From: Deltaproteobacteria bacterium
Lineage (GTDB): Bacteria > Myxococcota_A > Polyangia > Polyangiales > Houyiibacteriaceae
DNA length: 64,000 bases
Assembly: GCA_034670305.1 (NCBI GenBank)
Contig: JAXMNT010000035.1
Coordinates: forward strand, 1-64,000
Direction of reading: 5' to 3'
Within the stretch, counting starts at the first letter, position 1, and every line of letters starts with the position of its first letter. This document shows positions 8,081 through 57,398 of the stretch, one piece after another. Made by a program: the position numbers and the translations under genes. The notes under the pieces are model-generated. The model was not told the DNA's origin and did no database searches. It saw only the letters and a list, made by a program, of their open reading frames with translations.

Positions 8081-10603
8081 ATGCGGAAGTTGTTGGTGAC
8101 TCGAGGCGCGCAGGGCGCGGGCAAGACGCATTTCGCGCACACGCTGCGGTTGCATGACCACGTGCTCAGCGCGGATGCGATCCGCCAGATCACCGCGGCG
8201 CCGGTGCTGACGGTCTCGGGCCGGTTCGGCACCTCGCAGGACCACGACGCCCGGGTCTGGAAGCAGCTCATGCAGCTGTGCGACGAACGCATGGGGCGCG
8301 GCGAGTTGCTCATCGTGGACGCGACCCACCCAAACGCGAAGGCATTCGAACCCTACCTCGAGCTTGCCCACAAACACCGCTATGAACTCCGCTGCGTGGA
8401 CTTCGCGGGCGTCCCGCTCGAACGTTGTCTGAAGCAGAACCGCCTGCGCGACGATCCGTGGTTCGTACCCGAGGGCGTCATCAAGAAGACGTGGGCGGCG
8501 TGTGCCGATCCCGAACTGATCTCCGCGATCGCAGCGCTCGGCGTCGAGTCCATCCCGTGGCGAGAAGACCTCGGCCACGTCGACGAAGTGCAGGCCTGGC
8601 TCGACGAACCAATCCTCGACCTCTCCTCCTACGCCGCGGTGGTGCACATCGGCGACCTGCAGGGCTGCTTCACGCCGCTTCGGATGTTGCTCGACCCGAC
8701 TGAAGAAGACGGCGGGATCCGCGCCGAGAACTTCTACATCTTCATCGGCGATCTCTGCGATCGCGGCGACGAGAACGCCGAAGTGGTCCAGTTCGCGCTG
8801 CAGCACATGCACGAAGACAACGTGGTCTTCCTCTGGGGCAACCACGAAGAACACTTGCACCGCTGGGCGCGCGGGCTCGACCCGGTCAGCACCGAGTTCG
8901 ACGAACGCACCCGCCCACAACTCGAGGCGGGCGGCATCACACCCGCCATGCTGGACCCGCTCTGCGACCGGCTGCGCGACGTGGTGCGCTACACCTTCCG
9001 CGGCCACCGCGTGATGGCGTGCCACGCCGGCATGTCCACCGTGCCGAAGATGCCCGCGCGGGTGAGCTCCCGGCAATGGGCGAACGGCGTCGGCTTCTAC
9101 GCCGAAGCGATCGATCCGATCTTCACCGAGCGCGCACCGGAGGGCTGGGTGCAGGTGCATGGCCACCGCAACATTCACTCACTTCCGACCCGCGCCGCGG
9201 AACGCAGCTTCAACCTCGAGGGCAAAGTCGAGTTCGGCGGGGATCTGCGGGTCGTCGTGCTCGACGGCATGGGCTGGCACGAACGCGCGATCCGCAACCC
9301 GGTCTTCCGGCCGATCCAGAAAGTGGTCGCCGCCGGCAAACTCCGCCACGCCAAGAGCCACCCGCAATGGGTCACCGCGGACATGGCCGACGCACCGGCC
9401 GAAGGCGCCGAGATGTTGCCCGTCCTGCGCGCGCACCCGCTCATCTACGAACGACCGTCCAGCAGCGTGCCGCACATCTCCGCGTTCAACTTCACCCGCG
9501 AAGCGTTCTTCGACGCCGCGTGGGACGAGACCAACGTGCGTGCCCGCGGCCTGTTCCTGGACAACGAGACCGGCCGCATCCTCGCGCGCAGCTACGACAA
9601 GTTCTTCAACCTCGGCGAACGGCCCGAGACCCAGCTCGACGCGATCTGCGAGCGGTTCGTGTTCCCGGTCGATGTCTGGCTGAAAGAGAACGGCTACCTC
9701 GGCATCGTGGGATTCGATCACCGCACCCAAGAGCTCGTGTTCACCAGCAAGTCGAGCCTCGAGAGCGACTTCGCCGGCTGGCTGAAGACCCGGGTGGAAG
9801 AGACGCTCGGCGAAGGCGGCTTGCAGACGCTGCGGCGCTACGTGCGCGACGCGCAGGCGTCCCTGGTCTTCGAGGTCGTCGAGCCGGTGCACGATCCGCA
9901 CATCGTCGCGTACGACGCGCCGGTGCTCGTCTTGCTGGACGTCGTGCGCCGCGCCGAGAAGTTCGAACGCATGGACTACGACCGGTTGCAGAAGCTCGGT
10001 CAGTGGCTCGGGTTCCAGGTCAAGCAGCGCGCCGCCCGGCTGCCTTCCGAACGCGCGCTCCGCGGCTACCTCGGTCAAGCGCTCGAAGACGACGAACGCC
10101 AGGTCGAAGGCTACGTGCTCGAAGACGCGGCCGGCGCGCAGGTGAAGATCAAACTTCCCTACTACCAGTTCTGGAAACGCATGCGCTCGCTCAAGGACCG
10201 GGTGCTCAAGACCCGCGGTTCCAATCAGCCGCTGCAGCGGGATCTCAGCGACCCGCGCGTCGCCGCGTTTCACGCGTGGCTGACGGAGTGTTCGGACGAG
10301 ACCTTGAAGCTCGGCATCGTCGAACTGCGCGCGATGTACCTCGACGGCCACGTGCCTCCGCCACGGATCGGCGAAGCGAAACCGGATCCGAAGGTGCGCG
10401 GATTCGAACGGGCCCTCGAAGGCCTCGAGGGCGAGGCGCTCAAACCCGCGACCGCCGAAAAGCTGCTCGAGAAGGCCCTCGCCCACGACGGCATCCTCGC
10501 GATGCTGCGCGAGCGCCCCGAGCGGGTCGCCTTGGTGCTCGCCTGTCCAGAGGGCGACACGCGTACCGAAGCGGCGGAGCGCCTGAACGTGGACGTGGCG
10601 TAG
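8081..10603 (+). CDS. Polynucleotide kinase / metallophosphoesterase / Rnl1-type RNA ligase fusion
   Basis: P-loop GAQGAGKT; calcineurin-like GDLQG, GDLCDRG, GNHE, HAG, HGH; ligase RARGLF, SYDKFFN, KENG (motif I), EGYV (IV), KIK (V). Confidence 0.9.
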   Translation: MRKLLVTRGAQGAGKTHFAHTLRLHDHVLSADAIRQITAAPVLTVSGRFGTSQDHDARVWKQLMQLCDERMGRGELLIVDATHPNAKAFEPYLELAHKHRYELRCVDFAGVPLERCLKQNRLRDDPWFVPEGVIKKTWAACADPELISAIAALGVESIPWREDLGHVDEVQAWLDEPILDLSSYAAVVHIGDLQGCFTPLRMLLDPTEEDGGIRAENFYIFIGDLCDRGDENAEVVQFALQHMHEDNVVFLWGNHEEHLHRWARGLDPVSTEFDERTRPQLEAGGITPAMLDPLCDRLRDVVRYTFRGHRVMACHAGMSTVPKMPARVSSRQWANGVGFYAEAIDPIFTERAPEGWVQVHGHRNIHSLPTRAAERSFNLEGKVEFGGDLRVVVLDGMGWHERAIRNPVFRPIQKVVAAGKLRHAKSHPQWVTADMADAPAEGAEMLPVLRAHPLIYERPSSSVPHISAFNFTREAFFDAAWDETNVRARGLFLDNETGRILARSYDKFFNLGERPETQLDAICERFVFPVDVWLKENGYLGIVGFDHRTQELVFTSKSSLESDFAGWLKTRVEETLGEGGLQTLRRYVRDAQASLVFEVVEPVHDPHIVAYDAPVLVLLDVVRRAEKFERMDYDRLQKLGQWLGFQVKQRAARLPSERALRGYLGQALEDDERQVEGYVLEDAAGAQVKIKLPYYQFWKRMRSLKDRVLKTRGSNQPLQRDLSDPRVAAFHAWLTECSDETLKLGIVELRAMYLDGHVPPPRIGEAKPDPKVRGFERALEGLEGEALKPATAEKLLEKALAHDGILAMLRERPERVALVLACPEGDTRTEAAERLNVDVA

Positions 10604-10605
10604 CT

Positions 10606-10629
10606 GGAAGCGGAAGCGGTAGCGGTAGC
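10606..10629. repeat. (GGAAGC)2(GGTAGC)2 short hexamer array
   Basis: Directly after the ligase stop and downstream of the four-helix-bundle gene. Confidence 0.85.
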
Positions 10630-10666
10630 GCGACGGCCGGCGCCCCGAAGGACGCCGGCCTCACCT

Positions 10667-10981
10667 TCAGCGGCTCAGCTTGTACAGCATCGCGCAGACG
10701 TGGTCGCAGCGGTCGAGCAGCGCCGCGTCGACGTCCACGTACCCGAAGACCTCCGCCAGTTGGATCGCCGCCTTCAGCTCACTGCACTCGCCATAGGCAA
10801 TCGAGAACTTGTCGTGACAGCGAAGCCCCCGGGCCTGCCGAGCCTCTGCAATGTTCAGGACCACGCTCTGCGCCGCTCGCTGCATCTGCGAAGCGAGCGA
10901 AGCGTCATGCTTGCGAACGGCCGGTAGAACCTGGGCGCGAAGCGAGCGCACGAGTTCAAAAGAAGTTTGAAGAACGATCAT
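10667..10981 (-). CDS. Four-helix-bundle protein (23S rRNA IVP / TIGR02436-like)
   Basis: 104 aa; LASQMQRAAQSVVLNIAE and FSIAYGECSEL match the family pattern QxxRAAxSxxxNIAE...IAxGxxxE. Confidence 0.85.
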   Translation of the reverse strand: MIVLQTSFELVRSLRAQVLPAVRKHDASLASQMQRAAQSVVLNIAEARQARGLRCHDKFSIAYGECSELKAAIQLAEVFGYVDVDAALLDRCDHVCAMLYKLSR

Positions 10982-11013
10982 CGGAGACCCCTGTGTGAAG
11001 ACGACCGAGCAAT

Positions 11014-11150
11014 GTGCCCGGCGGCCGCAGGCCGCCGTCGTCTGGGGGGTCAGGGGTCAAGGGCGAAGCCAGCCTTCCGAAGGCTGGGGGCCGCAGGCCA
11101 CCCTTGAGGCCTGGCACCCCAGACGGCACGCTTGATCACCCGCCGGGCAC
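11014..11150. other. Branched multi-hairpin structured element upstream of the four-helix-bundle gene
   Basis: Complementary pairs 11014-11024/11140-11150, 11039-11047/11117-11125, 11051-11054/11110-11113, 11057-11063/11101-11107, 11069-11076/11080-11087, 11089-11092/11096-11099. Confidence 0.75.
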
Positions 11151-11229
11151 CAACCCCCCTCCGGCGACCCGTTCGAACACGGCAGTCACCCCGAAACGAG
11201 CCCACACGGAAGCCCTCGGCCTCAGCTGC

Positions 11230-11368
11230 AGAAACAGAAGCGGACGCGGAAGCGGAAACGGAAGCGGAAGCGGAAGCGGAAGCGGAAGCGGAAGCGGAAA
11301 CGGAAGCGGAAGCGGAAGCGGCCGCAAGAACCACGGGCAAGGGCAGGGGCATGGGCAACGGCAAGGGG
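11230..11368. repeat. (GGAAGC)n array followed by a (GGGCAN)n array
   Basis: 11230-11320 GGAAGC/GGAAAC/GGACGC units; 11335-11368 contains five G-tracts. Confidence 0.95.
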
Positions 11369-11426
11369 CCCAGTCCTCCTTCGGATCGGACCGTGCCCTG
11401 TCTCACCCCGCTGGTAGGGTGTGCAG

Positions 11427-13436
11427 ATGGCCGTGGGCAAGTTGCACCTGAGTAGCGAGATGACGCCGAAGGGCGATCAGCCGACCGCCATCGCGGAGCT
11501 GACCGCCGGCATCGAAAAGGGCGAGAAGCACCAGACGCTCCTCGGCATCACCGGCAGCGGCAAGACCTTCACCGTCGCCAACGTGCTGGCGAACACGGAC
11601 CGGCCGGCGCTCATCATGGCGCCCAACAAGACGCTCGCCGCGCAGCTCTACGCGGAGCTCCGGCAGCTCTTCCCGGACAACGCGGTCGAGTACTTCGTCA
11701 GCTACTACGACTACTACCAGCCCGAAGCCTACATCCCGAGCTCGGACACCTTCATCGAGAAGGACGCGATCATCAACGACGCGATCGACCGGATGCGGCA
11801 CAGCGCGACCCGCTCGCTCCTGAGCCGGCGCGACGTGATCATCGTGGCCAGCGTGTCCTGCATCTACGGCATCGGCGCGGCCGAGTGGTACCACGAGATG
11901 TTGATCGACTTGCGCAAGGGCGAAGAGTTCTTGCGGGCGCGGCTGCTGCGCCGGCTGGTCGACATCCAATACAAGCGCAACGACGTCGACTTTCACCGCG
12001 GCACGTTCCGGGTGCGCGGCGACGTGGTGGAGATCTTCCCGGCCCACTCCGACAAGCTCGCGGTCCGGGTGGAGTTCTTCGGCGACGAGATCGACCGCAT
12101 CGTCGAGGTCGACCCGCTGCGCGGCACCGTCGTGCAGGAGCTCGATCAGTACGCGATCTACCCGGGCAGCCACTACGTGACCCCCGAGCAACAGCGCGCG
12201 CAGGCGATCGAGCGCATCCGCAACGAGCTGCGCGAACGGCTCCAAGAACTCGAGAGCGCCGGCAAGTTGCTGGAACGGCAGCGGCTCGAACAACGCACGA
12301 TGTTCGACCTCGAGATGCTCGAGCAGATGGGGTTCTGTCAGGGCATCGAGAACTATTCGCGGCATCTGTCCGGCCGCAAAGAAGGCGAACCGCCGCCGAC
12401 CCTCATCGACTACTTCCCGGACGACTTCCTCCTGATCCTCGACGAGTCGCACCAGACGGTGCCGCAGATCGGCGCCATGTACCGGGGCGACCGCGCGCGA
12501 AAGCTCACGTTGGTCTCGCACGGGTTCCGGCTGCCGAGCGCGCTCGACAACCGCCCGCTCCAGTTCGAAGAGTGGGAGGCGCACGTCAAGCAGGCCATCT
12601 ATGTGTCGGCGACGCCGGGCGACTACGAACTCGACAAAGCCGAGGGCGTCTTCGTTGAGCAGGTCATCCGGCCGACCGGGCTGATGGATCCGATCATCGA
12701 AGTCCGGCCGGTCAAATCCCAGGTCGACGACCTGCTCGCCGAAGTGCGTTTGCGGGTGGAACGGGACGAGCGGGTGCTGGTCACGACGCTGACCAAACGC
12801 ATGAGCGAGGACCTCACCGAATACTACGCGGAGCTCGGCGTGCGGGTGCGCTACCTGCACAGCGACATCGACACCATCGAGCGCATGGAGATCCTGCGTG
12901 ATCTGCGCAAAGGCGAGTTCGACGTGCTCGTCGGCATCAACCTGCTGCGGGAAGGCTTGGACCTGCCGGAGGTGTCGCTCGTCGCGATCCTCGACGCGGA
13001 CCGGCAAGGTTTTCTGCGTTCCGCCCGTTCGCTCATCCAGACCTCTGGGCGCGCGGCCCGCAACGAACACGGCCGGGTGCTCATGTACGCCGACAAGATC
13101 ACCGACGCGATGCAGATCGCGATCGACGAGACCAAACGGCGCCGGGTGATCCAGGCCGCCTACAACGAGAAGCACGGCATCACCCCCACCACGGTGCGCA
13201 AAGCGGTCATGGAGCTCGACCCGTCGATGGGCCTGAGTGACTACGCCGCGGTCCCCAAAGTCGGCGACGACGAGGGCACGGTCGAAGAGCGCATCGAAGC
13301 GCTGCGCGGCGCGATGTACGCCGCAGCGGAGGATCTCGATTTCGAGAAGGCCGCCCGCTGCCGCGACCAGATCAAAGCGCTCGAAGGCAGCGACAAACGC
13401 CCCCCCGACAAGAAACGCCAACGCCCCCGGCGGTGA
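11427..13436 (+). CDS. uvrB: Excinuclease ABC subunit B
   Basis: [47 protein letters not shown]-terminal UVR motif. Confidence 0.98.
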
Positions 13437-21338: not shown

Positions 21339-23351
21339 ATGGATTTCGGGGCGCGACAGTGGGTGCTGTGTTTGTCTTTGGCCGTTGGGTTGGCGTGTTC
21401 CAGTGACCCGCCGCCTGAACCCGAATGTGAAGGGCACATGGACTGCCCTGAAGGCGAACGTTGCTTCGAGGGCAACTGCGAGACTGGCGGGCCTTGTGCC
21501 ACAACGCCGGACTGTCTGGTCGCGGATGACCCGTGCCTGACCGCCCGCTGCGAGCCTGCGACCCGCACATGCATCTACGGGGTCCTAGACGGCGACGGCG
21601 ACGGATCATCCCCAAGCATCTGTGGAGGCTTCGACTGCGACGACGGCGACCCGGACATTCACCCGGGCGCGGTCGATGTGTGCGATGGAGTCGATGCCGA
21701 CTGTTCAGGCGACGAACCCCCCGATTCACCGGGGTGTGCCGTCAACAAGGAATGTTCCGACGGTCGGTGCGTATGCGTCACCGGTCGCAGCGACTGCGGC
21801 GGGTTCTGCTACGACCTGAGTTCGGACCGAACCCACTGCGGCCGGTGCAACAACGGATGCATCGGTGGGCAGGTGTGCCGGGGCGGTTCGTGCGTCTGTC
21901 CAGGCCCCGAAGAGTTCTGCGAACGGGCTTGCGTAGACACCACAACCTCAACGAGCCATTGCGGCGGCTGCGACATCAGTTGCAATGGCCTGATGTGTCT
22001 TGATGGATCTTGTGGATGTGGTCCGGCACTAAGCGGCTGCCCCAGAGGAAGCGTGCTTGCTTGCGTGGACCTAGACTCGGATATCCAACACTGCGGTGCG
22101 TGCGGCAATGAGTGTGCGAGCGGTGCGACCTGTCTAGAAGGTGTGTGCAGCATTCGCGCGGATGGGTTGTTCTCTGCGTATGGCATCTCGACATCGGTGA
22201 GCGCGTTTGACCTATCCGGTACCAACTCCGGGTCCCGCATCGATTTCGACGCAGTCTCCAACAGCATCGCCACGGTTGAGGAGACCACAGGCGCCATTCA
22301 CCAGCACCTCGACGGTCCCTCCTCCTTCGACGGGTCCGAGGCCAACTTCGTTCTGTATGGACCCGACGGAGTCCACCGATGGGTCGCGGCGACCACCATG
22401 ACTGCTCGCCGCCAAGTGACAGCGGAAGGGGCGCACGTCTTCGTCGCCATGTCAGAGGATGGGCCTAGCGGAACTCTCTCTGGTCAGACCTTCCTCCGAG
22501 AGATTGGTAGTGAGCGGATCGAGCTGCTCGCAGAACTCGACCACGACACCGGAGAAGTCGTTCAGTCGGTCGACTTCGGCGCTCTCGATGTGAGGATCAC
22601 GGACATCGACGCAAATTCAGCTGGGGAGGTACTTGTCCTCCTTGAGCATCTGGAGGGAACCGTAGACCTTGGCGGTGGGCCATTCGATGCAGCCGATGGG
22701 CAGGGAATCGTTGTCATCTATGGACCGGGTCTCGTACATCGGCACTCGTTCCAGGTTCCGTTTGTGTCGCTTGGGCAGTTCAACCCCGGCGGAGACATCG
22801 TGCTCCACGGTGCACTCCTGGCGGAGGCATCCTTCCGCGGCGGGCCCGTACTGGCTCCAGCCTTCTCAGGCTACCTCGCACGTTTGACTCCCGAAGGTGG
22901 ACACCTTTCGTCCTTCATCCGGACGGGCCGAGTGTTGGCAGTCACCGCGAGAGGCGTTTGGGTCCAGGCGTCGGTCGGATTCGGGTTCTATCGGTTCGAT
23001 GGAACGGAGCTCCGTCTCCCTGCCCCATGGTCTGATCCGGACGTTCAAGCGGAGCACGTCGCCATCTCCGGCTCCGACCTATTCGTGAGTGGTCAGTTCC
23101 TGTCCAGAACCGACGTTGGTGAAATCCGGTTTGGTCGGAGTGCCTTCGTCGCTCGGTTCGACGCCGATACGCTCGTCCTGCGCGACGTGACGACCACGCC
23201 AGCTCCGACCTTCGGCTTCTTTGCCCTCGGTGGCGCGACACCCACGGTGAGGACCGTCGGCACCAGCTTTGGCATCGAACGTTTTGCCGGGCGTAGGCTC
23301 GGGGGGTTCGGTTCAGCCCACTCGTTCTTCGTGGACTACCAGTTCAGGTAA
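21339..23351 (+). CDS. Cys-rich lipoprotein with putative metal-binding motif and C-terminal beta-rich domain
   Basis: Lipobox GLAC; DCDDGDPDIHPGAVDVCDGVDADC; DxxHCGxC repeats; codon usage visibly less GC-biased than neighbours. Confidence 0.8.
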   Translation: MDFGARQWVLCLSLAVGLACSSDPPPEPECEGHMDCPEGERCFEGNCETGGPCATTPDCLVADDPCLTARCEPATRTCIYGVLDGDGDGSSPSICGGFDCDDGDPDIHPGAVDVCDGVDADCSGDEPPDSPGCAVNKECSDGRCVCVTGRSDCGGFCYDLSSDRTHCGRCNNGCIGGQVCRGGSCVCPGPEEFCERACVDTTTSTSHCGGCDISCNGLMCLDGSCGCGPALSGCPRGSVLACVDLDSDIQHCGACGNECASGATCLEGVCSIRADGLFSAYGISTSVSAFDLSGTNSGSRIDFDAVSNSIATVEETTGAIHQHLDGPSSFDGSEANFVLYGPDGVHRWVAATTMTARRQVTAEGAHVFVAMSEDGPSGTLSGQTFLREIGSERIELLAELDHDTGEVVQSVDFGALDVRITDIDANSAGEVLVLLEHLEGTVDLGGGPFDAADGQGIVVIYGPGLVHRHSFQVPFVSLGQFNPGGDIVLHGALLAEASFRGGPVLAPAFSGYLARLTPEGGHLSSFIRTGRVLAVTARGVWVQASVGFGFYRFDGTELRLPAPWSDPDVQAEHVAISGSDLFVSGQFLSRTDVGEIRFGRSAFVARFDADTLVLRDVTTTPAPTFGFFALGGATPTVRTVGTSFGIERFAGRRLGGFGSAHSFFVDYQFR

Positions 23352-28311: not shown

Positions 28312-29259
28312 TCAGTCGACCCGATGAAGCGCCGGTCGGCCGTGCAGCACCGCGTCGAGGTTGGCGAGCGCCAGCTCCGCCATGCGCACCCGAGTCGCCG
28401 TGGTCGCGCTGCCCACGTGCGGTGTGAGCACGACGTCGTCCCGCTGAAGGAGCCCGGCGTGTACGCGCGGCTCGTCTTCGAAGACGTCGAGCCCGGCGCC
28501 CCCGATCTTTCCTGCTTCGAGCGCCTGGACCAGTGCGGCTTCGTCCACGATCGCACCTCGCGCGGTGTTGAGGAGCAACGCGCCGCGCTTCATGGCGCCG
28601 AACTCCTGCGCGCCGAACCGGCGACGGGTCGCGTCGTTCAAAGGCGCGCTGATCGCCACCACGTCCGAGACGGAGAGCAGGGTCTCGAAGTCGACCGGCG
28701 ACGCGCCTTCGCGCGCCAGCGCCGGGACCTCGGTCCGAGTGCAGTAGACGACGTTCATGCCGAACCCCGCGGCGCGGCGTGCGATCGCCCGGCCGATGCG
28801 GCCGAAGCCGTAGATCCCGAGGGTCGCGTCGCTCAGCTCCATGCCGAGCAGCGCGGTCGGCGACCAGAACCCGAAGTCGCCACTGCGCGCCAGCCGCTCG
28901 CATTCGCGGAGCCGCCGCCCGACCGACAGGAGCAACGCGAACGCGAGGTCCGCGGTCGCTTCGGTCAACACATCCGGGGTGTTGGTGACGACCACGCCAC
29001 GCTTGGTGCAGGCGGCGACGTCGATGTTGTCGTAGCCGACCGCGAGGTTGGAGACGACGCGCACCGACGGGCACGCGTCCAGGAAAGCGGCATCGATGCG
29101 GTCGGAGAGCAACGAGAGCACCCCGTGGCAGCCGCGGGCGCGCGAACGAAGCTCCTCCGGTGTCGGCGGCCGGTCGTGCTCGAAGAGATCCACCTCGACG
29201 CCCCGGGGAAGCTGGCTGCGCGGATCGATCGGCAACCGCCGGGTGACAAAGATCTTCAT
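28312..29259 (-). CDS. D-2-hydroxyacid dehydrogenase (glyoxylate/hydroxypyruvate reductase type)
   Basis: AVGYDNID, NTPDVLTEATAD, GFGRIG, NTARG, LDVFEDEP, PHVGSAT. Confidence 0.93.
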   Translation of the reverse strand: MKIFVTRRLPIDPRSQLPRGVEVDLFEHDRPPTPEELRSRARGCHGVLSLLSDRIDAAFLDACPSVRVVSNLAVGYDNIDVAACTKRGVVVTNTPDVLTEATADLAFALLLSVGRRLRECERLARSGDFGFWSPTALLGMELSDATLGIYGFGRIGRAIARRAAGFGMNVVYCTRTEVPALAREGASPVDFETLLSVSDVVAISAPLNDATRRRFGAQEFGAMKRGALLLNTARGAIVDEAALVQALEAGKIGGAGLDVFEDEPRVHAGLLQRDDVVLTPHVGSATTATRVRMAELALANLDAVLHGRPALHRVD

Positions 29260-30023
29260 CCGAGTGCACCGAGCCGAAGTTGCCGGAGCCACGCATCCAT
29301 TTCGGCGCGGTTCGGGGGTTCGGTCGGAAGCGTGCTCTTCGCCTCGGCTTCGACGAGTTCCGCTTCGAGCTTCGTCCAGCCGGCCCGCATCGACGCGTCG
29401 ATGTCTTCCGGCAGCGTCGCGTGTTCGTCGGCTTCGCCTTTGAACCGCACCACCTCGAGCACCTGCGGGTACCCGTACTCGGGCGCGAGCGCCGTCGCGT
29501 CGCCGATGAGTTCACCGGTACGCATCAGGTGGATGCCGGTGAGCGCGACCCGGTAGCTGTAGAGCATGGTCTTCGCGCGCTGCTTGAGCGCGTGCTCGCG
29601 CTGCATGCCTTGGAAGAAGCCTTTGTAGTGGCTTGCGAACCGCCGGCTGATGCTGCCGCGCGCGAGTTCCGCGAGCGCGTCGACTTCGGGGCCTTCGACG
29701 ATTTGGATCGGAGACAGAAACCGTTCGAGCAGGTTGCCGTTGCCCTTGAGCAAGAGCGAGAGCGCGCGCGCGGCTTCGTGGGTGGTGAGATCGTGTTCGA
29801 GCGCTTCGAAGTCGAGCAGCCGATCGAAGGTCTCCGTCGGCCGGTCGAGCCCGAGCAGCGCCTGGGTCGGTGCGAGGTGCACGCCCTTGAGATCCACGTC
29901 GCTGTCCGGGGACGGGAACCCGTAGAAGTGCGCCCCGGTCACGCCGAGTTGAAGCAAGCGGCCCGGCGGTGGGTGCGCCTCCAGAAACCGAAGCGCTTTG
30001 TCGCGGTCGACCTCCATGCCCAT
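29256..30023 (-). CDS. Pol-beta superfamily nucleotidyltransferase (RlaP/PF10127-like), copy 2
   Basis: GAHFYGFPSPDSDVDLKG, LLKGNGNLLE, LYSYRVALTGIHLM. Confidence 0.85.
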   Translation of the reverse strand: MGMEVDRDKALRFLEAHPPPGRLLQLGVTGAHFYGFPSPDSDVDLKGVHLAPTQALLGLDRPTETFDRLLDFEALEHDLTTHEAARALSLLLKGNGNLLERFLSPIQIVEGPEVDALAELARGSISRRFASHYKGFFQGMQREHALKQRAKTMLYSYRVALTGIHLMRTGELIGDATALAPEYGYPQVLEVVRFKGEADEHATLPEDIDASMRAGWTKLEAELVEAEAKSTLPTEPPNRAEMDAWLRQLRLGALG

Positions 30024-30025
30024 GG

Positions 30026-30934
30026 CTACCTCCACCCCCGGACCCGCTCGATGAGCTCCACGCACAGCGCCTCGACGAAGTCTCCGTCGACGCTCTCTGG
30101 GAGGTCGCTCGCGGCGCGGGCCGTTCGAATGCGGGCGTCGTTGGACGCGCACACCTCGAGCAACTGTTCGTACGTCATCGCTCCATCGCGGATCGCGAGC
30201 AGCTCGTCGCGGTCGGTCCGCCGCACTTGCACGACGCCGGTCTCGAGGATCTCCACCGCCATGCGCTGAAGCCGAACGAGATGCAGCGCGTGTTTGGTGT
30301 CGAAGCCGTACTTCGCCTCGAGCGCACTGCGTTTCGGGTTCCGCGACTTCTTCCACTGCTGGTACTGCTGCCAGCGCGCCCGCGCCGAGCGGTACTGCTT
30401 CTCCTTGCCGAGCGTCGCGAGAAACGCCGGCGAGGCGTCGAGCACTCCGTCGCGTTCGAGCAGCGCTTCGGCGGCCCCGAGTTGATCTTTGGCCACCGCC
30501 GGCCGTTCGGGCAGCCCGAAGTCGGCGCGCACCGGTGCGGCTTTCGGAGGCGAGAGCAGCCACTGCCGATGGGTCTGGATGCGTTTGAGCTGACCGAGCG
30601 CGTAGCCACCGAAGGTGTCCCCGACCTGTGCGGTCACGAACCGGTCGCGCACCTCGAGCAGCCGCCGCCCGGCGTCTTCGAGCCCCTGGTGGTCGGAGGG
30701 ATCGGCGAACAACATCTCGAGCGCCATCGGGTTCGCGCGGGCGGCGAGGCGCAGGAACTTCCGGAGCTCGAACCGCACGTGGTCCGGCCCGAGCTCGACC
30801 TGCTCCGGTCCTGGATCGGGCCCGAGGTACCAGACGGGCGGACCCACCACGATGCCCTTCAGATCGGTGTCCGATCCTTCGCGCGCGAGTCCAAACGCCC
30901 GGCTGCCGTGCACGGTTTCGTAGATCAGGTCCAT
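30026..30934 (-). CDS. Pol-beta superfamily nucleotidyltransferase (RlaP/PF10127-like), copy 1
   Basis: [50 protein letters not shown]. Confidence 0.88.
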
Positions 30935-49005: not shown

Positions 49006-49612
49006 TCCGCTTCCAGTTCCGCTTCCGCCTCCGCTTCCGCTTCCGCTTCCGCTTCCGCTTCCGCGACCGCTTCCGCTTCCGAATCCGAAGGAGAGGATGC
49101 GCGGTTCCCGTGCCCGTGCCCGTGCCCGTGCCCGTGCCCGCGGGGTTGTTTCTGAACCGAAACCGATCCCGAATCCGAAGCCGATCCCGAAGCCGATCCC
49201 GAAGCCGAAGCCGATCCCGAAGCCGACGCCGATCCCGAAGCCGACGCCGATCCCGAAGCCGACGCCGACGCCGACGCCGACGCCCACGCCGATGCCGAGA
49301 CCGATGCCGAGACGTCTTCAAAGGGTCGGGCCGTAGCCCGGCCTTCGTGCACGTACACGTACACGTGCACGTGCACGTACCCGTGTGCGTCCTCGTCCTC
49401 GCCATCGAGGATCAGACGTGAGTTCTGTTGACCGCGTCCGATGCCGATTCCGATGCCGAGGCCGATGCCGAGGCCGACGCCGCCGCTGCCGCTGCCGCTG
49501 CCGCTGTCGCTGTCGCTGCCGCTGCCGCTTCCGCTTCCGCTTCCGCTTCCGCAACCGCTTCCGCGACCGCTTCCGCTTCCGCGACGGATTCCGATCCCGA
49601 TCCCGATTCCGA
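49006..49612. repeat. Large composite repeat region with several hexamer families in both orientations
   Basis: GCTTCC block, CCCGTG block, CGAAGC/CGATCC block, CACGTR block, GCCGAK block, GCCGCT/TCCGCT block. Confidence 0.95.
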
Positions 49613-53912: not shown

Positions 53913-53996
53913 CCCGTCGTCAGGAGTCACGCCGGAAAGGTAGCACGCCCCAGTCGGGGCGGGATCCGAGGTCGTATGCGGTCGTATGCGGTCGGC

Positions 53997-54260
53997 CGCG
54001 GTCGCGGAAGCGGAACCGGAAGCGGAAACGCTTGCGGAAGCGGTCGCAGAAGCGGAGGCGGAGGCGGAAGCGGAAGCGGTAGCGGTAGCGGTAGCGGTAG
54101 CGGTAGCGGTTGCGGAAGCGGGTCGCGGAAGCGGAAGCGGAAGCGGTCGCGGCATCGGCTTCGGCGTCGGCGTCGGCATCGGCTTCGGCTTCGGCTTCGG
54201 ATTCGGCTTCGGCGCGAACAAAGAACGGGGGCAAGGGCAGGGGCAAGGGCAAGGGCAAGG
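53997..54260. repeat. GGAAGC/GGTAGC block, opposite-orientation GGCTTC block, then (GGGCAA)n
   Basis: Three periodic blocks between the divergent MoxR and LysR genes. Confidence 0.95.
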
Positions 54261-54314
54261 ACAACGCTTCGCGTTTGGTTGCCCGGGCTGGGCTTCCTGT
54301 GCTGTGGTCTCTTC

Positions 54315-55152: not shown

Positions 55153-55350
55153 CAGGCCAAAGGCCTGACGAGTCCCCTTGCCCCTGCCCTTGCCCCTGCC
55201 CTTGCCCTTTGTTCGGCAAACCGACAGCAACCCGAGCAACAGACCGAGCAACAGCAACAGCGGCAGACTCAGGGACAGCGGCAGCAGCAGCCTCAGCCTC
55301 AGCGACAGCGGCACCAGACGCAGCGCCAGACTCAGCAGCACCAGACTGCT
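55153..55350. repeat. Triloop hairpin, (GGGCAR)n on minus strand, then CAG-type array
   Basis: caggcc-aaa-ggcctg 55153-55167; G-array 55174-55207; gacagc/ggcagc units up to 55350. Confidence 0.88.
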
Positions 55351-56814: not shown

Positions 56815-57398
56815 GGCTCGGTGCTTAGTCTGGCAGGCGCTGAGACGCGAACGATTGGCACTCGTCCCGGCGTGGCCTCGCCCGCGGTGACACGGACGCA
56901 AACATCGGGGCGCTCCCCACGGCCACGGACCACTGCCAGCTCACTTTCTAGTTCAATAGCCGGGCGAGCATGAAGTCTCCCATCACAGATTGTGTACCGT
57001 TTGACATCTATTCCATCGGATTCGATGGTCGCCAGGACGCAGAGAGTGTCGACATCGGGGTCCCCTGGATCCGGCCGCCTGTGGGCGTATGCCCATGCCG
57101 CCAACGAGCTGCAATCATCCACTCCGGCCTGAGCTGCCGACCGCGGACATCTACACTGAGATCTGAGGACGTGTGGCTCTCGACCCTGGAGATGAACCCA
57201 TGCCCCAACAGCCACAACGGTGGCGAGAACAAGGCCGACAAAGAGCTTTTTCAAGAGCCCGCCGAGTCGCCAACGAACAACGTCACCGAAGACGCGCGTC
57301 CGGGCGCCTTCCGCGTACTCCTGGACGCGATAGTCATCGACGGAGAGTTTAGTCCGTGACACCCGGATCTGGGAACTTGATCTCAGACTTGCGTTCAT
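56811..57398 (-). CDS. Hypothetical single-TM protein
   Basis: One TM helix; its stop overlaps the next ATG (ATGA); a competing + strand ORF lies at 56970-57359. Confidence 0.3.
   Translation of the reverse strand: MNASLRSSSQIRVSRTKLSVDDYRVQEYAEGARTRVFGDVVRWRLGGLLKKLFVGLVLATVVAVGAWVHLQGREPHVLRSQCRCPRSAAQAGVDDCSSLAAWAYAHRRPDPGDPDVDTLCVLATIESDGIDVKRYTICDGRLHARPAIELESELAVVRGRGERPDVCVRVTAGEATPGRVPIVRVSAPARLSTEP

Follow-up and report, generated by a model that had tools for sequence, protein, structure and literature searches.

The window analysed here, a stretch of 64,000 nt from contig C35 of a Polyangiales genome (G000; 7.93 Mb, 68% GC, 105 contigs), carries one copy of a repeated gene cassette between an RNA ligase gene and uvrB. 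The unit consists, in this order, of a hexamer array, a leader of ~170 nt, a 104-aa gene of the PF05635 family, a GC hairpin and a second hexamer array. We hold this description, a family of cassettes with a real leader and with arrays intrinsic to the unit, with high confidence. The best reading of the cassette is that it represents this myxobacterial order's version of the gene cassettes first seen as 23S intervening sequences (IVS) bearing an open reading frame (ORF). Our account of how it works is more tentative. We assign a probability of roughly 0.45 to a combined reading in which the cassette is long-lived and of IVS type, the arrays are part of the unit and probable recombination handles, and the leader controls or processes the cassette mRNA.

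A family of cassettes bounded by hexamer arrays

The genome contains 47 PF05635 matches, 39 of them above the cut-off. A blastn search with the repeat-free interval 10631-11230 returned seven other loci with 84.9-89.3% identity over 513-531 nt, and some 15 further loci at 66-69% over the coding sequence (CDS) and ~130 nt upstream. When the eight close copies, designated group A, were aligned, the shared sequence ran from the GC hairpin that follows the stop codon through the CDS to ~170 nt upstream, and the homology ended on both sides at hexamer arrays, followed by unrelated DNA. An earlier note on this DNA, here called the original prediction, had proposed a cassette at this position; eight copies, 85-89% identical over about 525 nt and alike only up to the arrays, establish it as a discrete unit. 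Three groups of paralogs bear the leader, and their proteins are identical to that of the present copy at 93-95% (group A), about 60-64% (group B) and about 50-59% (group C). The parts of this copy, with their strands where one applies, are as follows.

10606-10630: 3'-side short tandem array of GGAAGC/GGTAGC, 4.2 copies (Tandem Repeats Finder, TRF), starting 3 nt past the ligase stop codon
10635-10660, minus strand: GC-rich hairpin, terminator-like without a U tract, directly after the stop codon; present in 8/8 group A copies (alignment)
10667-10981, minus strand: PF05635/TIGR02436 four-helix-bundle gene, 104 aa (profile matches)
10982-11015, minus strand: tail of the 5' untranslated region with ribosome-binding site, from leader to start codon; 96.6% pairwise identity within group A
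11016-11148, minus strand: structured leader core, 133 nt (covariation; the covariance-model match spans 11006-11178)
11158-11186: 29-nt palindrome-bearing fragment, a Y1-element end, found in this copy alone of the 8 in group A
11237-11321: 5'-side tandem array of GAAGCG, 14.2 copies (TRF), of the same unit and strand as 10606-10630
11335-11367: solo 33-nt (GGGCAA)5.5 block of the group D arm type (TRF)

The TRF calls confirm GGAAGC-type repeats on both sides in one orientation, as the original prediction had described; the (GGGCAA)5.5 block was absent from it. The 104-aa ORF on the minus strand, likewise noticed there as a four-helix-bundle gene opposite to both neighbours, matches PF05635 over residues 2-100 (E = 1.3e-15, 58 bits, cut-off 33.8) and the TIGR02436 model 'four helix bundle protein' (59.4 bits, cut-off 24). 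Its translation contains the motif RxxxSxxxNxxE (R35, S39, N43, E46), which is described as conserved in PF05635-type proteins (PMC3936711). The nearest solved chain is 2GSC (XCC0516; E = 1.6e-5, residues 8-98); the entry has 5 chains, and the protein is described as a homopentamer (PMC4990558). Proteins of the cassette family are mildly basic, with isoelectric points of 8.4-9.4. An R-x4-H motif is visible on inspection of the group A sequences and is not retained in groups B and C. No nuclease motif was recognised in the cassette protein, and it matches no PADLOC or PHROGs family.

Gene and leader occur together: immediately downstream of 35 of the 39 leader matches in the genome, on the same strand, lies a PF05635 match, and a leader accompanies 35 of the 47 gene matches. 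Gene-less derivatives are rare (4/39 leaders). In one of these derivatives, on contig C18, the 3' hairpin and arrays follow the leader without a break, a configuration that a deletion of the CDS between two similar hairpins would leave. Truncated 5' parts of the cassette are also present in the genome. Within group A (8 copies, 28 pairs) the nonsynonymous divergence (dN) is 0.049 and the synonymous divergence (dS) 0.527, giving a dN/dS of 0.09.

The leader is a new RNA motif

The leader is an RNA motif new to Rfam that is well supported by covariation. Its folded core of 133 nt is closed by helix P1 (11016-11022 / 11142-11148), which encloses a long helix, P2; an invariant UCAAGG/CCUUGA helix at the junction, a GGCC-UUC-GGCC hairpin, a variable hairpin and hairpin P4 complete it. 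The original prediction had seen a branched structure of ~137 nt upstream of the start codon, and this core upholds it through covariation in 29 of 35 pairs. The fold of the single sequence 10982-11165 (-) is by itself unexceptional (z = -1.95; 10/200 shuffles were as stable).

From 31 leaders of the three groups, aligned with MAFFT, RNAalifold derived a consensus with 10 compensatory pairs, and a structure of 35 pairs was drawn on the alignment. In this alignment 93.5% of the cells pair, compared to 34-42% when the 3' partners are slid, double changes occur in 12 of the 35 pairs, and none of 500 shuffles matched the covariation score. Compensatory changes are found in 24/35 pairs when 45 leaders are aligned, and in 29/35 for 60 distinct leaders from 21 genomes, where 94.8% of the cells pair (27-44% when slid) and again 0/500 shuffles match the score. 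The 60-leader alignment was fitted to a covariance model and is hence biased toward the structure, for which the 31-leader MAFFT alignment serves as the independent control. Some nucleotides of the junction, paired as well as unpaired, are invariant across the 60 leaders. The same alignment holds 140 G.U cells and 26 A.C cells, which favours an RNA of the gene's own strand. Within group A the leader is 89.6% identical, the ribosome-binding tail 96.6% and third codon positions 71.4%; since its identity exceeds that of third codon positions, the leader is under constraint of its own.

A first covariance model, derived from the 35-pair structure, identified 39 leader copies in this genome. No Rfam 15 family matched anywhere in the window at gathering score, and a search of 10600-11420 at E values up to 10 returned only chance-level matches of miRNA type (E = 0.6 or worse). 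Inspection by eye for guide-like complementarity between leader loops and array units gave nothing convincing. Some leaders (L034, L035 and L018, at C19:95849, C28:6141 and C68:35370) contain small hairpin-rich inserts of ~70-110 nt belonging to at least two families. Similar small inserts lie inside the leaderless genes of group D described below (C32, C83, C1:298450), and together they suggest further miniature mobile repeats in this genome.

Hexamer arrays across the genome and at cassettes

At a TRF score of at least 50, a threshold below which the 4.2-copy array at 10606-10630 falls, the genome holds 1375 period-6 arrays that cover 150.8 kb, or 1.9% of the DNA. The leading units are AAGCCG (430), AAGGGC (406) and AAGCGG (82). 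Among intergenic regions of at least 100 nt, the share with an array is 62.6% where the flanking genes converge, about 25% where they are in tandem and 11.5% where they diverge, and 188 of the 381 intergenic regions of 400-800 nt contain arrays. Arrays overall show no orientation bias relative to host genes. With such abundance, an array beside any single gene is unremarkable.

What distinguishes the cassettes is the frequency of adjacent arrays and their units. A period-6 array no more than 400 nt upstream or 150 nt downstream was found for 40 of the 41 PF05635 paralogs that lie away from contig ends, compared to 1183 of 5743 other gene calls (21%); for upstream arrays the counts are 33/41 and 474/5743. 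The enrichment of arrays at paralogs, one of the checks put forward in the original prediction, was thus found. The figures for other genes are approximate, as the genes were called crudely by codon usage (5942 calls, 88% coding). The Fisher P values of the enrichment are overstated, the paralogs not being independent, yet the difference in counts is large in itself. With units given in gene sense and group A counted as 8 full copies plus one truncated, CCGCTT/ACCGCT stands upstream in 7/9 group A copies in one orientation relative to the gene, and CCGCTT-type units follow ~49-57 nt past the Pfam match in 5/9. Group C has AAGCCG/ATGCCG upstream in 11/14 copies, in a single orientation. Groups A and C carry one unit in one orientation on both sides. 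In group B the upstream arrays are of the AGCGGC/ACAGCG type (11/14), and those downstream, at 43-86 nt, are of the CGGCTT class, with one ATCGGC (9/14).

Some features of the arrays stand apart from the cassettes. Their units have a common CCGC/CGGC-type core with two variable positions, and arrays often begin 2-6 nt past a stop codon (7929, 35984 and 44357 in the window). In a recurrent composite, a (CACGGG/GGGCAA) arm is followed by CATCCTCTCCTTCGGATTCGG and this in turn by a (TTCGGN)n array (window 49082-49140; C2:69576, C3:84221, C4:195799). The motif occurs 74 times, with 68 occurrences within 120 nt of an array and only 18 near a leader. Because the composite recurs, many TTCGGC-type arrays have a defined head sequence at their start.

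Group D and the 33-nt arms

A fourth subfamily, group D, comprises ten PF05635 matches without a leader. Each is preceded by (CCCTTG)5.5 and followed by (GGGCAA)5.5, which makes the two blocks inverted arms, and a hairpin lies outside each arm. The copies are closely alike, frameshifted or truncated and invaded by small inserts, and several are at contig ends. This inverted-arm design is confined to group D; the direct arrays of groups A and C and the unlike units of group B cannot pair.

Arms of 33 nt number 503 in the genome, 270 of them with exactly 5.5 copies, and pairs in C...G orientation that enclose 50-630 nt are favoured (57 versus 20). The (GGGCAA/CCCTTG)5.5 blocks are not free microsatellites. 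Four lie in the window, at 40-77, 11335-11367, 54229-54264 and 55175-55209. The first ~130 bases of the window are the 3' end of a group D-type arm element on the minus strand, and the first 77 of these are the arm end.

Occurrence in other genomes and history of the locus

Matches to the first covariance model were found in 5 further genomes directly upstream of PF05635 matches. A second model located the leader in 21 of 151 sampled genomes of the order, representing 17 of 77 genera and six families; the highest count in a single genome was 12 copies. In a phylum-wide sample, also of 151 genomes, it was present only in G000, in one genome of the same family and as one weak partial match; the latter, outside the order, has no four-helix-bundle gene beside it and was rejected as spurious. 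Among 21 leader loci in 20 other genomes, the four-helix-bundle gene follows in 18 (19 counting one Pfam match) and one further locus runs off its contig. Arrays of period 5-8 accompany 19 of the 21, mostly abutting the 5' end of the leader, and the unit differs in nearly every genome. Twenty further loci in three genomes gave similar counts (gene 19/20, arrays 18/20). In genome G039, AGTCCG/ATTCCG-type arrays of a single orientation flank all five copies on either side, and (CGTCTG)n stands upstream of 4/6 copies in G027. The control loci, around uvrB in 19 relatives (~5 kb each), contained one period-6 array in total and no four-helix-bundle gene.

Paired copies were seen as well. In other genomes of the order, convergent leader-gene cassettes ~0.8-1 kb apart, with arrays outside, are frequent (loci L053, L083, L096, L100-L102 and L115, in genomes G027, G132 and G135), and pairs of PF05635 genes 45-100 nt apart occur in G002, G012 and G013.

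No relative has a four-helix-bundle gene upstream of uvrB, and the cassette is therefore no long-standing neighbour of that gene. In three relatives the gene that stands in tandem upstream of uvrB is the ortholog of one found elsewhere in G000 (C74:25435-26526). In that place a 173-nt (AAGCGG/TCGCGG)n array (C74:25263-25435, in gene sense) now comes after it, and uvrB in G000 is preceded by an array of the same AAGCGG-type unit and direction, that at 11237-11321. The ancestral gene pair is split in G000, with AAGCGG-type arrays of like direction at both break ends, which in this single case suggests a rearrangement through arrays.

The present neighbours of the cassette gene, both on the opposite strand, are uvrB (11421-13436, +) and an RNA ligase fusion (8081-10603, +) whose 840-aa product combines AAA_33 kinase, metallophosphatase and T4-type RNA ligase domains. 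The architecture of the fusion is Pnkp-like, yet the protein scores far under the NCBIfam Pnkp cut-off. Two adjoining RlaP 'RNA repair pathway' nucleotidyltransferase genes lie at 29256-30934, so that with the kinase-phosphatase-RNA ligase fusion the window is rich in RNA-repair genes. The locus is contained in four public DNA runs of one study, in which a 3002-nt contig spans the ligase gene into the cassette gene; no public RNA run matching this stretch was found.

Empty sites and candidate catalysts

No family of transposase, integrase or reverse transcriptase (RT) was detected among 39 proteins of the window, in agreement with what the original prediction had stated. The scanned set comprised 35 of 42 gene calls and 4 ORFs, with the cassette gene entered as the full ORF; three short calls, 22617-22808, 53920-54264 and 57171-57359, lie outside this set. 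A search of the whole genome for RT or HUH genes, which that prediction had suggested as a source of a catalyst, yielded three RTs, all scoring best as retron RTs and none adjoining a cassette, and 11 matches to Y1 (HUH) transposases; none of the RTs is of the type found in diversity-generating retroelements (DGR). The 29 nt at 11158-11186 are a 96.6% match to the ends of ~1-kb Y1_Tnp elements on C15, C11 and C55, and this fragment is not in the other 7 group A copies. The Y1 elements themselves are IS200/RAYT-like with inverted ends (C15:125582-126655, C11:63805-64876, C55:37825-38514). Alignment of the cassette ends revealed no poly-A, target duplication or shared terminal motif.

Orthologs of the ligase gene are present in 4 of 30 relatives (50-57% identity), none with uvrB nearby, and a metagenome scan for the ligase locus returned three loci at only 35-36% identity. 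A joint from 10630 to 11237, which skips 606 nt, was present in 3 runs and considered as an empty site; its shorter side is 22-23 nt, all of it repeat, and it was not counted.

Proposed mode of action and alternatives

In the combined reading the flanking arrays would belong to the unit and act as recombination handles. The homologous recombination of the host could then add, remove or relocate copies among arrays of like unit, and the cassette would need no recombinase of its own. Where direct arrays of the same unit stand on both sides, as in groups A and C and in G039, a copy could be lost as a circle and acquired again wherever a like array exists, and recombination through arrays would keep the orientation of the cassette fixed relative to the repeat strand, as is seen. 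The leader would be a sense-strand cis element that controls or processes the cassette mRNA. It would most likely be bound by the cassette's own mildly basic protein, a predicted interaction that would make an autoregulatory ribonucleoprotein (RNP); alternatively, processing at the leader may release the mRNA from transcripts begun further upstream. Since the copies are old and maintained, the cassette would be long-lived, either selfish but tolerated or partly domesticated.

Several observations weigh against this proposal. The closest module pair across groups A-C is 94.9% identical (229 pairs compared), and there are no recent copies. Low dN/dS on long branches fits a host-level function as well as selfishness. 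The units of group B differ between the two sides, which simple excision and integration through direct repeats fails to explain. Only 90 of the 1375 arrays (61 of 856 with at least 8 copies) lie within 500 nt of a cassette gene or leader, and 93.5% are without one. The 59 cassette-adjacent arrays compare with 619 other intergenic arrays at a median of 19.5 versus 22.5 copies and 84% versus 84% matches. In the leaders of this genome alone, with the invariant pair left out, 18 G.U and 32 A.C cells give an ambiguous answer as to the strand. Finally, no empty site or insertion polymorphism was found among the genomes compared, which include no same-genus relative.

Two claims of the original prediction are affected by these points. 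Its idea of the other arrays as protein-less relatives of the cassette stands for the few gene-less derivatives, but most arrays are not visibly of this kind, given the small share of arrays near a gene or leader. The unit is not a recent insertion, nor do the copies stem from a recent burst, because dS is 0.53, the best pair is 94.9% identical and selection is purifying. On the same divergences the cassette would not be an actively bursting transposon.

The alternative that survives best, although we consider it unlikely, is that the genes are domesticated paralogs encoding host factors that bind hexamer arrays, either as DNA or as RNA at gene 3' ends. Each subfamily would have its own unit, the leader would be autoregulatory, and the cassettes would be genes kept vertically beside their binding sites. 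This would accommodate the purifying selection on all 8 close copies despite their dS and the lack of recent duplicates, the subfamily-specific units with fixed orientation, the excess of arrays over genes (1375 versus 47) and the concentration of arrays at gene 3' ends, in convergent rather than divergent regions. However, the units vary by genome while protein and leader remain recognisable, the two sides differ in group B, and group D is decaying. Moreover, the arrays of relatives cluster at cassettes and not at the control loci, which fits arrays owned by the cassette better than genome-wide targets.

Rather less probable is a leader that acts as a processing element and nothing more, a self-cleaving or nuclease-guiding RNA that would cut the cassette mRNA out of read-through transcripts. 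It would be the counterpart of the RNase III excision of rRNA intervening sequences, and mobility would be a separate matter. The leaders are co-oriented with the gene 5' of them in 24 of 35 cases, at a median distance of 250 nt, and consensus scans of 10500-11500 found no sigma-70-like promoter. The invariant junction nucleotides of the 60 leaders and the failure of the leader to match any Rfam family are also consistent with it. On the other hand, 11/35 leaders are divergent, including the present one, which cannot depend on read-through because it diverges from its 5' neighbour uvrB, and no catalytic-RNA signature is known for the leader fold. The same scans returned no terminator either; the hairpin at 10635-10660 was missed because no T run follows it.

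We give little credence to an RNA-antitoxin-like or defence module in which, by analogy with type III toxin-antitoxin systems, the upstream array or structured RNA would neutralise the small protein and copies would be kept by addiction. Repeats and a structured RNA do lie directly upstream of the small gene, on the same strand and conserved across genomes, and the copies are long-lived and under selection. PF05635 genes are also described as frequent guests in cas loci (PMC3936711; PMC10910872), and the first of these sources places them inside such loci. Against this stand the failure to match PADLOC or PHROGs, the arrays that also lie downstream of the gene and the lack of a recognisable nuclease motif. 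The unit of 6 nt is, furthermore, unlike that of ToxI, which is ~36 nt.

Equally improbable in our view is an RNP of leader RNA and protein that would create or maintain the adjacent arrays, either by priming or templating repeat synthesis or through slippage or recombination at their borders. If it did, the ~1,400 hexamer arrays, and perhaps repeats beside PF05635 genes in other phyla, would be its footprint, and both a function for PF05635 and an origin for bacterial 6-7-nt repeats would follow. The suggestion that cassettes generate arrays was rejected here on the finding that adjacent arrays are neither longer nor purer than other intergenic arrays.

It is very unlikely that an RT or a HUH/Y1 transposase encoded at another locus is dedicated to moving the cassettes in trans, as the original prediction had suggested of any catalyst. 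The genome offers 3 RTs and 11 Y1_Tnp matches as candidates, a Y1-element end lies between leader and array, and there are hairpins at both cassette ends; yet the RTs score best as retron-type and none adjoins a cassette, the Y1-end fragment is peculiar to this one copy of group A, the ends lack any of the marks looked for, and the copies are old. A chance neighbourhood, with the gene in an array-rich genome (188/381 intergenic regions) and the structure a GC-rich accident (z = -1.95), is barely credible, being contradicted by the enrichment of 40/41 against 21%, the fixed unit and orientation, the replicated layout and the 29/35 covarying pairs.

Comparison with known systems

PF05635 is a very large family for which, to our knowledge, no function is known apart from that of Avd, and we know of no explanation for bacterial 6-7-nt tandem repeats either. 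We found no paper that connects PF05635 with a leader RNA or with short tandem repeats; the family appears in the papers found as the IVS ORF, as a relative of Avd and as a guest in cas loci, and its members also occur inside operons. The statistics from one genome, the replication in 20 further genomes and the new RNA motif now tie PF05635 and tandem repeats together, so that the function of the family and its tie to bacterial short tandem repeats become testable. The leader motif is a concrete candidate for a binding or processing partner of the PF05635 protein.

Avd of the DGR is a small, basic protein of the same fold family and is presumed to be a nucleic-acid-binding pentamer (PMC10053308). 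It has a DGR-type RT adjacent to it, whereas no RVT family was found among the 39 window proteins and the three RTs of the genome are retron-type. The DGR reading was rejected because the genome has no DGR-type RT; no template/variable repeat pair was seen, though no search aimed at such pairs was made. Insertion sequences (IS), transposons and integron cassettes have their own or an adjacent recombinase, and none was found among the same 39 proteins.

Type III toxin-antitoxin systems of the ToxIN kind likewise have an array and a structured RNA that precede a small gene on its own strand, and an RNA-protein pairing is plausible in both. They differ in an unrelated protein family, with toxins of the ToxN/AbiEii type; the cassette has a 6-nt unit, arrays downstream as well, no PADLOC match and PF05635 as its only hit. 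Bacterial short tandem repeats without an assigned function, such as the cyanobacterial heptamer STRR repeats, are similarly intergenic, mostly 3' of genes, built of 6-7-nt units and variable in length. Here, by contrast, some of the arrays go with a protein gene and an RNA motif, and their unit and orientation are fixed.

The closest likeness is to the ORF-bearing intervening sequences of 23S rRNA in Coxiella burnetii (helix 45) and Leptospira, whose S23p protein belongs to PF05635 as does that of the cassette (PMC4990558). As that source presents the intervening sequences, they share with the cassette a small size of ~0.4-0.7 kb, a self-contained make-up between bounding repeats and a sporadic occurrence, and like it they are regarded as selfish. 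An intervening sequence lies within the 23S rRNA gene (helix 25 or 45), whereas the cassette sits between the ligase gene and uvrB; the single 23S gene of G000 is at C85:11277-14289, and 0/47 PF05635 matches are on that contig. The repeats of the intervening sequence form a 28-bp inverted-repeat stem (PMC4990558), and those of this copy are direct tandem hexamer arrays. It is the 'gene in a stem' layout of group D that resembles an ORF-bearing rRNA intervening sequence in this respect. The Coxiella ORF is described as decaying and its protein as probably not made (PMC4990558), in contrast to the cassette protein, which is under selection, and the complex covarying leader is found on the cassette. 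The cassette is thus distinct from a 23S intervening sequence, a DGR, an IS and any described RNA family, and it lacks their defining features. In its working it is most like an ORF-bearing intervening sequence, from which it differs by its direct arrays and its complex leader.

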